Positions 10,306 to 10,737 of a DNA stretch of 24,000 bases are shown piece after piece. Position 1 is the stretch's first letter. Every line of letters begins with the position of its first letter. Under the pieces are notes generated by a model. It worked only from the letters and a program-made list of their open reading frames with translations, was not told where the DNA came from and ran no database searches. Source of the DNA: Geobacter sp. OR-1 (lineage in GTDB: Bacteria; Desulfobacterota; Desulfuromonadia; Geobacterales; DSM-12255); the NCBI RefSeq assembly GCF_000813145.1, contig NZ_BAZF01000011.1, forward strand, positions 110,774 through 134,773, written 5' to 3'. The translations under genes and the position numbers were made by a program.

Positions 10306-10737
10306 ATGGAAACCGTCAGAGAACAGCTGCAGATATTCACCCGCCGTTTCGGCCTGCTGAACGCATCATGCTGCGACAGCTGCTGCGGCGAGGATGTATC
10401 GATCGTTCAGAGCCATATCCTCTTTGAGGTGCGCCGGGCCGGAAACCCCTCCATGCAGCAGGTGGCTGAAGAACTGGGGATCGACATCACCACCTTCAGC
10501 AGGCAAGTCAAAACCCTCGAAACAAGGGGACTGATCGCCAAAGAGGTATCACCCGGCGACCGCAGGGTAAACCTGCTCAAGGTGACCGACAAGGGGTTGC
10601 AGGTACTGACCCAGATCGATCGCTTCATGGAACAGAAAATCGAGCAGATATTCTCCGCCATGACCGAGTTTGAACGAATCACCGTCACCAGTTCCCTCAA
10701 ACTGCTGAACGATGCCGTAACCAAAACCTGCTGCTGA
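10306..10737 (+). CDS. MarR-family transcriptional regulator with vicinal-cysteine motifs
   Basis: 143 aa, with the SD AAGGAG. The wHTH is MQQVAEELGIDITTFSRQVKTLETRGLI, followed by the MarR wing signature GDRRVNLLKVTDKG. There is an N-terminal CCDSCC motif (residues 22-27) and a C-terminal CC (142-143). Confidence 0.85.
   Translation: METVREQLQIFTRRFGLLNASCCDSCCGEDVSIVQSHILFEVRRAGNPSMQQVAEELGIDITTFSRQVKTLETRGLIAKEVSPGDRRVNLLKVTDKGLQVLTQIDRFMEQKIEQIFSAMTEFERITVTSSLKLLNDAVTKTCC

Follow-up and report, generated by a model that had tools for sequence, protein, structure and literature searches.

The control of hgcAB, and the purpose that the encoded proteins serve, are open questions in mercury biogeochemistry. 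Both are raised by a locus of Geobacter sp. OR-1 in which a gene for a MarR-type repressor lies directly upstream of the mercury methylation genes. Within the 24,000-nucleotide stretch of DNA analysed here (hereafter, the window), marR (10306..10737, 143 amino acids) was followed on the same (+) strand by hgcA (10853..12127), encoding the corrinoid protein of mercury methylation, and by hgcB (12142..12432), encoding a 2x[4Fe-4S] ferredoxin that ends in ECCS. HgcA contained the motif NVWCAAGK, matched NF040863 (1.5e-135; 451 bits, cutoff 275) and began with a cysteine-rich tail abundant in CC pairs (residues 1-103; 10853-11161, + strand), and HgcB matched NF040864 (1.9e-39). Genes neighbouring marR in the window were gltB-like, hgcA, hgcB and nuo genes. 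On balance, comparison of related sequences favours a MarR protein that is a homodimeric, cysteine-based metalloid sensor of the MarR_ars branch, and that probably represses its own gene together with hgcA and hgcB.

The marR product shared 100% identity with a protein of Geobacter sp. OR-1, and its membership of the MarR family was clear. The protein scored above the Pfam gathering score for both MarR_2 (PF12802; 8.8e-13, 48.7 bits, cutoff 27) and MarR (PF01047; 2.5e-12, 46.9 bits, cutoff 24.6), and an AlphaFold2 monomer model (mean pLDDT 82.9) had the canonical six-helix and beta-wing topology of the family, aligning by Foldseek with Escherichia coli MarR (3voe) at a TM-score of 0.84. In the model, helix 1 (residues 4-20) led into a cysteine-containing loop (21-30), followed by helices at residues 33-45, 50-57 and 61-73, the last being the recognition helix, then the wing (77-93) and two C-terminal helices (95-117 and 121-140) that ended in a TCC tail. 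The sequence DRRVNLLKVTDKG of the wing spanned residues 85-97. The family scores and the modelled topology thus bear out the original prediction of a normal winged helix-turn-helix and wing. No solved structure of a close relative was found, and by sequence the top PDB entry was MexR (E-value 2.9e-11). Membership of the ArsR/SmtB family was rejected, with NF033788 at 19.7 bits (cutoff 55) and Pfam HTH_20 at 17.6 bits (cutoff 27). A ribosome-binding site, AAGGAG (10293..10298, + strand), could be read 8 nt upstream of the open reading frame, and AGGAG-like sites occupied the equivalent position in related loci.

Six cysteines set the protein apart as a candidate thiol-based sensor. Four formed two vicinal pairs, C22-C23-D-S-C26-C27, in the linker between helices 1 and 2 (codons 10369..10386, + strand), which we propose as a metalloid-binding site, and two formed a C-terminal pair, C142-C143, directly after the last helix (10729..10734, + strand), which we propose as a third ligand; the codons, including those of the KTCC ending, lay exactly where they had been predicted. 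In an alignment of 35 MarR homologs with a mean column identity of 69%, C22, C23, C26, C27 and G28 were invariant, and the CCxxCCG motif was present in all 120 of the homologs listed for this protein, so that the pattern is conserved beyond chance. Across the MarR homologs encoded at 80 species-level GTDB loci, CCxxCC was kept in 73, and at least one CC pair fell within the last 22 residues in 71, ars-linked Firmicutes included; a second C-terminal CC was common in many homologs. The first loop pair (C22-C23) aligned with the single CC of an ars-linked Bacillales clade; in more distant members, it was the second pair (C26-C27) that lined up with their CCG. The loop itself was the lowest-confidence, flexible part of the AlphaFold2 model.

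A survey of gene order at the marR loci found marR, hgcA and hgcB in the same order and on one strand in 57 of the 80 loci, with outer flanks that varied from locus to locus. Gaps between marR and hgcA ranged upward from overlaps (-12 and -16 nt), through 20 nt in Geobacter pelophilus, and the spacer in the window was 115 nt. Further carriers of the module include Geobacter daltonii, Oryzomonas japonica Red96, G. argillaceus and Pelotalea chapellei. On the + strand the interval from marR to hgcA showed no terminator-like site, and a terminator-like hairpin with a 12-bp stem followed hgcB (12477..12506, + strand). This hairpin also reads as a minus-strand terminator and may therefore belong to the convergent tRNA-Cys gene. 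The tRNA-Cys gene beside hgcB, although suggestive next to cysteine-rich genes, was absent from 42 related loci and was taken as coincidence. An Rfam scan of positions 10000-12700 returned the tRNA only, with no riboswitch or leader RNA. We infer that marR, hgcA and hgcB form one autoregulated, co-transcribed unit.

A possible operator for such a unit was defined in silico as the 13-bp palindrome TTGCA-N3-TGCAA, of which the window held three copies against 0.6 expected. Copy O2, TTGCATTTTGCAA (10258..10270), began 48 nt before the marR ATG. Copy O1, TTGCACTTTGCAA (10235..10247), was an exact match 23 bp further upstream, and an extra upstream copy of this kind was absent from most related loci. 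Copy O3 (10753..10765), again exact and with the sequence TTGCATTTTGCAA, lay 15 nt past the stop codon of marR and 87 nt ahead of hgcA. The palindrome occurred within 200 nt upstream of marR in 78 of the 80 loci (56 exact, 22 with one mismatch) at a median position of -48.5 nt from the gene, and was kept at protein identities as low as 39-42%; outside these upstream regions, 643 kb of background sequence contained 1 exact copy and 14 with one mismatch.

The position of the palindrome coincided with that of a likely promoter. The first half of O2 supplies a likely -35 box, TTGCAT (10258-10263), with a putative -10 box, TATTTT (10281..10286, + strand), 17 nt after it and a perfect TATAAT (10273-10278, + strand) as an alternative. 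A generic sigma-70 scan of positions 10100-12900 called no promoter; the assignment comes from the alignment of the 78 loci, in 51 of which a TAnnnT hexamer stood 16-18 nt past the first half-site. A palindrome in the regulator's own promoter is a trait of the MarR family, and here the candidate operator overlaps both the -35 box and the spacer. Inheritance of the regulator with hgcAB and a conserved palindrome that overlaps the promoter of the unit (78 of 80 loci) thus support the earlier suggestion that hgcAB has a regulator of the MarR type, different from those that are ArsR-like.

Copy O3 had a counterpart at the same place in a relative 90% identical to the protein studied here (locus L088), and between marR and the next gene in nearly all ars-linked Firmicutes loci, where it abutted the ribosome-binding site of that next gene. 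As a separate hgcA promoter O3 was rejected, as no -10-like box stood at the right spacing; together with the Firmicutes arrangement, this leads us to prefer a role as a roadblock or cooperative site. Its place in the marR-hgcA spacer also bears on whether the MarR protein controls hgcAB at all. Expression of hgcAB has been described as largely constitutive in earlier culture studies, and the protein might control only itself or an unrelated regulon, the adjacency being a hitch-hiking relic that the 115-nt spacer would allow. Given an order kept in 57 loci despite differing outer flanks, reading frames of marR and hgcA that overlap in several loci with no intervening terminator, and an operator copy within the spacer itself, we regard such a relic as highly improbable.

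The preferred reading, an autorepressor of the whole unit, can be laid out as a mechanism. In the uninduced state a dimer would occupy TTGCA-N3-TGCAA, and since the first half-site doubles as the -35 box, the bound repressor would occlude RNA polymerase. O1 would offer a further copy two helical turns upstream, and O3, just past marR, probably acts as the roadblock or cooperative site by which hgcAB would be repressed more tightly than marR. A soft thiophilic ligand, most likely As(III), Sb(III) or methylarsenite, would be bound by the thiolates of the C22-C23-x-x-C26-C27 loop and of C142-C143 in a site of proposed geometry. The loop lies at the predicted junction of the dimerisation and DNA-binding domains, and binding would shift the winged-helix domains, releasing the DNA and switching hgcAB on.

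The proposed ligands come from the company that relatives of this protein keep. At 23 of the 80 loci hgcAB was absent; these were mostly Firmicutes, at 50-61% identity. The same CCxxCC, C-terminal CC and operator were found without hgcAB in Paenibacillus, Thermincola and Bacillaceae, beside arsM, arsP-type or ars-island genes. The gene downstream of the regulator at loci without hgcAB was arsM in 5 (NF008823, 309-322 bits, cutoff 263), an ArsP_1 permease in 3, and in 13 a Pyr_redox_3 flavoprotein adjoining ArsN1, ArsR, ArsB and ArsC. The same pairing of regulator and ars genes recurred on plasmids and among the single-CC Bacillales; a homolog on a Stenotrophomonas plasmid was Bacillales-like (95% identity to Lysinibacillus), and a search with it gave only Bacillales proteins. 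Among the hgcAB loci themselves, 11 of 57 had acr3, arsC or arsR within 5 kb of marR-hgcAB, mostly directly upstream of marR and divergent from it. No ars homologs were found in the 24-kb window of strain OR-1; the strain is cited for As(V) respiration and would therefore make As(III) itself. These contexts suggest that the protein is part of a MarR branch which, in other settings, controls arsenic genes, and they offer a testable way into the question of what turns hgcAB on. They also bear out the prediction that the CC pairs point to sensing of a thiophilic metal or thiol, the cysteines being invariant or nearly so and the nearest relatives without hgcAB lying in arsenic clusters.

Mercury itself is an obvious competing inducer. 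Vicinal cysteine pairs are typical of proteins that handle mercury, such as MerT and the C-termini of MerA and HgcB. A dedicated Hg(II) sensor whose thiol pairs bind the substrate of HgcAB, so that mercury entry induces methylation, would fit this resemblance, as it would the CC-rich tail of HgcA and the ECCS ending of HgcB in this locus. The affinity of Hg(II) for thiols exceeds that of As(III), so binding of Hg(II) in vitro is almost certain. However, the same cysteine pattern and operator stand beside arsenic genes where hgcAB is lacking (Paenibacillus, Thermincola and Bacillaceae), none of the neighbours examined was recognised as a mer gene, and the family member studied by experiment answers to As(III) and Sb(III). 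A dedicated mercury sensor is therefore unlikely.

The same gene contexts weigh on a thiol-redox function, in which disulfides between C23 and C26 of C23-x-x-C26, or between loop and tail, would free the DNA as in OhrR, MosR and MexR. The motif does include a CxxC, redox-sensing MarRs are common, MexR (the best PDB sequence match) has an oxidised form, and at one paralog locus (L004) the regulator is followed by AhpD-like and DsbD-like genes. What is conserved family-wide, however, is the vicinal pair and the C-terminal Cys rather than CxxC, and the contexts are overwhelmingly arsenic, not peroxide or quinone. With OhrR-type membership also rejected (27.6 bits against a cutoff of 200), we consider a redox switch quite unlikely.

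A structural or cofactor metal, be it Zn or an Fe-S cluster, might instead be what the cysteines bind, with another effector such as a corrinoid, a metabolite of the methyl cycle (SAH, for example), or oxygen or NO acting through the cluster. Four to eight cysteines per monomer exceed the need of As(III), Zn-dependent MarRs are known in AdcR and ZitR, and the ArsR-like hgcAB regulator of strain ND132 also responded to SAH-related treatments. Against this, the AdcR-family model reached only 24.8 bits (cutoff 175), which rejects AdcR/ZitR-type membership; the second Cys pair is missing from large ars-linked branches that retain the same operator, and the model predicts a flexible Cys loop with no folded knuckle. 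We rate a structural or cofactor metal as very unlikely, and return to metalloid sensing as the preferred function.

If the MarR protein does sense metalloids, hgcAB of Geobacterales would be metalloid-induced, repressors of the ArsR2 and MarR_ars types would have been recruited to hgcAB independently, and the role for which HgcAB was selected might be linked to arsenic or antimony. We advance this wider reading tentatively and think it doubtful as a whole. Under it, HgcAB could methylate a thiophilic metalloid in a corrinoid-dependent manner or handle one in some other way, with the CC-rich tails of its two proteins possibly serving for hand-off; the methylation of mercury would then be a side reaction. 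The Firmicutes offer a counterpart, in that the same MarR and operator precede arsM. For Geobacterales, an order that includes known mercury methylators, the result is a conserved putative module of a repressor, a 13-bp operator and six candidate ligand cysteines. The module makes the inducer hypothesis specific to trivalent arsenic or antimony species and the question directly testable. Should As(III) induce hgcAB, arsenic co-contamination would predict methylmercury production, and such co-contamination occurs in paddy soils, the home of the As(V)-respiring strain OR-1.

Several known systems resemble parts of this module. Vicinal cysteines occur in variants of ArsR (Cys95/96/102 in AfArsR, Cys15/16/55 in CgArsR and Cys101/102 in SpArsR) and in ArsD, where the pairs, often near a terminus and reaching across the dimer, bind As(III) at S3 sites or MAs(III) at S2 sites. 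Their fold (ArsR/SmtB or ArsD) differs from that of the MarR protein, and the resemblance is one of chemistry, not homology.

A parallel at hgcAB itself is ArsR2 (DND132_1054) of Pseudodesulfovibrio mercurii ND132, an ArsR/SmtB-type regulator whose gene is transcribed together with hgcAB (Gionfriddo et al. 2023; bioRxiv 10.1101/2022.10.17.512643). The literature bears out the remark in the original prediction that reports of hgcAB regulation concern ArsR-like proteins, with ArsR2, from one Desulfovibrio-type strain, the only hgcAB regulator tested so far. Like the MarR protein, ArsR2 is encoded directly upstream of hgcA and is rich in cysteine, four of which form its metalloid site. Expression of hgcAB in ND132 responds to arsenic, and both arrangements link hgcAB with arsenic. 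The two differ in that they belong to unrelated protein families, place their cysteines differently, and occur in different lineages (Desulfovibrionales for ArsR2, Geobacterales for the MarR protein); the module described here thus lends independent, convergent support to a connection between arsenic and hgcAB.

Adjacency of marR and hgcA had itself already been mentioned in passing. In Geobacter daltonii and in Dethiobacter, hgcA was noted to have a MarR gene upstream (Zhang et al. 2023, PMC10349881), and 112 genomes of another study were reported to have a putative transcriptional regulator, left unnamed, in that position before hgcAB (McDaniel et al. 2020, PMC7438021). The likeness to the MarR protein is one of position, and the permafrost metagenome-assembled genomes (MAGs) of the latter study overlap our set, in which locus L056 is a palsa MAG and one match (P0038) is labelled Verrucomicrobia. 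Those reports differ from the present one in giving no analysis of cysteines, no operator, no link to MarR_ars and no family beyond MarR.

The nearest relative in kind is AdMarR_ars of Achromobacter deleyi As-55 (QVQ28260.1), the founding member of MarR_ars, described as a repressor of arsV and of itself that is released by As(III) or Sb(III) and requires Cys36, Cys37 and Cys157 (Yu et al. 2021, bioRxiv 10.1101/2021.08.12.456183). The preprint also places orthologs ahead of arsV, arsN and arsP, with Paenibacillus among the hosts. Translation of the mutagenesis primers used for AdMarR_ars gives RDRDRI-CC-YDVSV and VAST-C-AADP, and the counterparts in the MarR protein are CC-GE-DVSIV and VTKT-CC. 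Both proteins share the MarR fold, a vicinal Cys pair before a helix that starts with DVS, and a cysteine in the tail, with C142-C143 of 143 residues as the positional counterpart, by these primer-derived peptides, of Cys157 among 163 residues. Which of C22-C23 and C26-C27 corresponds to Cys36/Cys37 is ambiguous from the alignments. The N-terminal vicinal pair and C-terminal Cys that mark MarR_ars are thus both present. A profile search of 1.84 billion representatives recovered MarRs of this make-up by preference, with 49 full-length ones carrying an N-terminal CC and a C-terminal Cys among the top 150 matches; identity to one distant CC-type member (P0329) was 36% over 75 residues. The two regulators are also placed alike, each in the position of an autorepressor, before its own gene and an adjacent effector gene. 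Location in an ars operon beside arsV, arsN or arsP, another MarR_ars trait, was absent from the window and present in relatives, which precede a flavoprotein, ArsN1 or an ArsP-type permease, including in Paenibacillus. The primer peptides, cysteine pattern and gene contexts point to a probable kinship with MarR_ars.

This probable kinship qualifies the claim of an atypical sensor type: thiol sensing is supported, but its novelty is not, since cysteine-based metalloid-sensing MarRs have already been described. What differs is the cargo, hgcAB instead of an arsenic-resistance gene, which would extend the MarR_ars subfamily; arsM, absent from the cargoes named in the accessible text of Yu et al., is possibly a further new one. 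That text gives no operator, whereas TTGCA-N3-TGCAA is proposed here in silico. Finally, MarR_ars has three single conserved cysteines, whereas the MarR protein has CCxxCC and a C-terminal CC, and the extra Cys pair, together with the second C-terminal CC of many homologs, could shift selectivity towards metals that are bound in a four-coordinate or linear fashion, Cd, Zn and Hg(II) among them.

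The ORF at 10306-10737 (+), with AAGGAG just 5' of it, encoded a 143-residue protein of the MarR family (Pfam MarR_2, 8.8e-13; MarR, 2.5e-12; both over threshold), matching a Geobacter sp. OR-1 protein at 100% identity; ArsR/SmtB, OhrR and AdcR-type identities were rejected by model scores. Downstream lay bona fide hgcA (10853-12127, +; NF040863, 1.5e-135) and hgcB (12142-12432, +; NF040864, 1.9e-39), then a hairpin terminator (12477-12506); no terminator was found in the marR-hgcA interval of the window. With these two families downstream and CCxxCC and CC motifs in the MarR protein, the original prediction of a cysteine-rich MarR directly upstream of hgcAB was confirmed. 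The synteny survey that it had proposed, run with tblastn on species-representative genomes, placed hgcA on the same strand and directly 3' of marR in 57 of 80 loci, with hgcB next wherever the contig extended. The marR stop and hgcA start overlapped by 12 or 16 nt in several loci and were 20 nt apart in G. pelophilus. Since the outer flanks varied between loci, marR, hgcA and hgcB form a travelling module; together with the low GC of marR and 5' hgcA (0.49-0.52 at 10000-11000, vs 0.62-0.69 for the gltB-like and nuo genes on either side), this suggests that the module is horizontally mobile.

In OR-1 the neighbours of the module were a glutamate-synthase-like gene (1518 aa) on one side and the nuo operon on the other. 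In the latter, nuoA (12805-13200; Oxidored_q4) was followed by a single 790-aa ORF (13197-15569) that, judged by eye from size and sequence, looks like a NuoB-C-D fusion. A tRNA-Cys(GCA) gene (12514-12588, - strand) lay immediately past the terminator of hgcB, in convergent orientation to the operon; as it was absent in 42 related loci, its position is probably a coincidence or a mark of the module's insertion point. On metagenome contig L088 (3001-5619), which carries the closest relative (MarR 90% identical), a gene for a 167-aa 4HBT thioesterase separated marR from hgcA. HgcA began with a Cys-rich, low-complexity tail of about 100 aa (residues 1-103; 10853-11161) containing GCGC, PSCC, TPCC and PPCC and a final conserved segment, KPPCCGP..GGxIxExVPGF; relatives had one to five CC pairs in this tail or lacked it altogether. 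By analogy with the C-terminal CC of HgcB, the tail could act as an arm that passes on metal(loid)s.

The regulator has a MarR fold: its AlphaFold2 model (46 sequences in the input alignment, mean pLDDT 82.9) comprised helices at residues 4-20, 33-45, 50-57, 61-73 (recognition helix), 95-117 and 121-140, with residues 77-93 forming a beta-wing, and superposed on E. coli MarR with a TM of 0.84. No solved structure was found for a close relative, the top match being MexR (E 2.9e-11). All six cysteines were exactly where the original prediction had put them: C22, C23, C26 and C27 (codons 10369-10386, +) in the linker joining helices 1 and 2, which is flexible and the lowest-confidence part of the model, and C142 and C143 (codons 10729-10734, +) just past the last helix. 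This loop and tail are conserved. CCxxCCG was present in 120/120 of the best database homologs (66-90% identity), and C22, C23, C26, C27 and G28 were invariant in a 35-sequence alignment with a mean column identity of 69%; the C-terminal tail varied in length and nearly always held one or two CC pairs.

A predicted operator, TTGCAyTTTGCAA, occurred in three exact copies, starting at 10235 (O1), 10258 (O2) and 10753 (O3), and these were all the matches to TTGCA-N3-TGCAA that the 24 kb contained when one mismatch was allowed (0.6 expected). In 78/80 loci the palindrome occurred no more than 200 nt before marR (56 exact, 22 with one mismatch), at a median start 48.5 nt 5' of the start codon, whereas the remaining 643 kb of the same loci held 1 exact and 14 one-mismatch copies. 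As it was still present at 39-42% protein identity, the predicted operator is a family trait. When loci were aligned on the palindrome, the first half-site, TTGCAw, fell at the expected place of the -35 box, with a TAnnnT hexamer 16-18 nt past it in 51 of the 78, followed by an AGGAG ribosome-binding site. The predicted operator thus covers the -35 box and part of the promoter spacer, where repressors classically bind. For the window, the putative -35 box is TTGCAT (10258-10263, +), the first half-site of O2, and the putative -10 box is TATTTT (10281-10286, +), 17 nt downstream. Most Geobacter-type loci had a single copy, upstream of marR, which implies one autoregulated marR-hgcAB transcript; a further copy about 15 nt past the marR stop was found in the window (O3) and in L088 (14 nt).

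The 23 of 80 loci without hgcAB were from Firmicutes (50-61% identity), except for a Geobacter paralog (L004) and a contig-end fragment (L055). The Firmicutes loci had the same Cys pattern and upstream operator as the hgcAB loci, usually with a second copy between marR and the next gene's ribosome-binding site. Downstream of marR we found arsM in five loci, including Thermincola and Formimonas (NF008823, 309-322 bits, cutoff 263), an ArsP_1 permease in three Bacillaceae loci (PF03773, 3e-51), and, in 13 Paenibacillus loci, a Pyr_redox_3 flavoprotein of 465 aa amid ArsN1, ArsR, ArsB and ArsC. The flavoprotein (L063, 5514-6911, with equivalents in 12 other Paenibacillus loci, and L084, 4491-5930; 465-479 aa) fell far short of the NCBIfam cutoff for ArsO (36.8 vs 425 bits), ended in Paenibacillus in a CC-rich tail (SSCC...SNCC), and probably corresponds to ArsV as described by Yu et al. 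In a Firmicutes MAG (L062, 4123-4875 and 6949-7440), the marR-arsM pair was flanked by a B12-binding-domain protein and two DUF2703 proteins, of which one had GCCSGNSCC at its C-terminus; this is another grouping of CC-tailed proteins around a regulator of this kind. The L004 paralog (5001-7819), from a Geobacter MAG that also holds an hgcAB locus (L010), kept the Cys motif and operator; hgcAB was not downstream. Genes after it encoded a 91-aa product that matched no family, an AhpD-like protein whose C-terminal tail was rich in CC, and a DsbD_TM membrane protein; an ArsR-like gene preceded it.

A large Bacillales sister clade (1331 database matches at E up to 1e-5 from one seed) had a single N-terminal CC and a C-terminal CC in all of its best 120 matches, and the layout marR-flavoprotein-ArsN-ArsRBCD, as in Paenibacillus. 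Plasmid copies lay inside ars islands or before ArsN1. No ars gene was found in the 24-kb window. An acr3/arsC/arsR cluster lay within 5 kb of marR-hgcAB in 11/57 hgcAB loci, mostly right next to marR on its 5' side and in divergent orientation, and ArsP-like and DsbD-like genes were present too in some; this frequency is far above the chance level for genomes with one or two ars loci each. Possible alternatives are that the protein senses Hg(II) specifically, that it is a thiol-redox sensor, or that its cysteines hold a structural metal and the effector is something else, but all three fit these cross-lineage gene contexts less well. As(III), Sb(III) or methylarsenite is the most probable ligand.

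We propose that a MarR dimer at O2 would repress the marR-hgcAB operon, that O1, two helical turns upstream, would assist in OR-1, and that O3 may serve there as a roadblock or cooperative site. Thiolates of the Cys loop and C-terminal tail would chelate the soft ligand, altering recognition-helix spacing and releasing the DNA. Geobacter sp. OR-1 is cited as an arsenate respirer, so the presumed inducer would be made by the host itself. The question of hgcAB regulation in Geobacter is thereby reduced to simple experiments.

The sole tested hgcAB regulator, the ArsR-like ArsR2 of P. mercurii ND132, is arsenic-responsive (bioRxiv 10.1101/2022.10.17.512643), and the MarR finding lends convergent support to an hgcAB-arsenic link. 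Adjacency of marR and hgcA had been remarked in passing, in a one-sentence listing for G. daltonii and Dethiobacter (PMC10349881); the regulator without a name that McDaniel et al. noted upstream of hgcAB in 112 genomes (PMC7438021) may belong to the same family. The sensor type has likewise been described, as the MarR_ars subfamily of Yu et al. (bioRxiv 10.1101/2021.08.12.456183). Its founding member, AdMarR_ars from Achromobacter As-55, is an As(III)/Sb(III)-responsive repressor of arsV and of its own gene; orthologs, among them some in Paenibacillus, precede arsV, arsN and arsP. Our literature search found no paper linking MarR_ars to hgcAB. What appears to be new is the placement of an hgcAB-linked regulator in this subfamily, the doubled vicinal-Cys site, the predicted operator TTGCA-N3-TGCAA, the breadth of the module (57 species-level loci) and the arsM, ArsP-type and ars-island parallels. 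Mutagenesis primers published for AdMarR_ars translate to RDRDRI-CC-YDVSV and VAST-C-AADP, with counterparts ...CC-DS-CC-GE-DVSIV and VTKT-CC in the window protein; the AdMarR_ars peptides and the window protein alike have a vicinal pair just before the start of the DVS helix and a Cys in the C-terminal tail. Such likeness, with the arsenic contexts of the relatives, supports the original reading of a thiophilic-metal or thiol-redox sensor. C22-C23 aligns with the lone CC pair of the Bacillales clade, and C26-C27-G with a CCG in CC-type MarRs that are more distantly related, many of which were found by profile search; both alternative positions are thus occupied in the window protein, which looks like a MarR_ars-type sensor carrying the two vicinal pairs at once.
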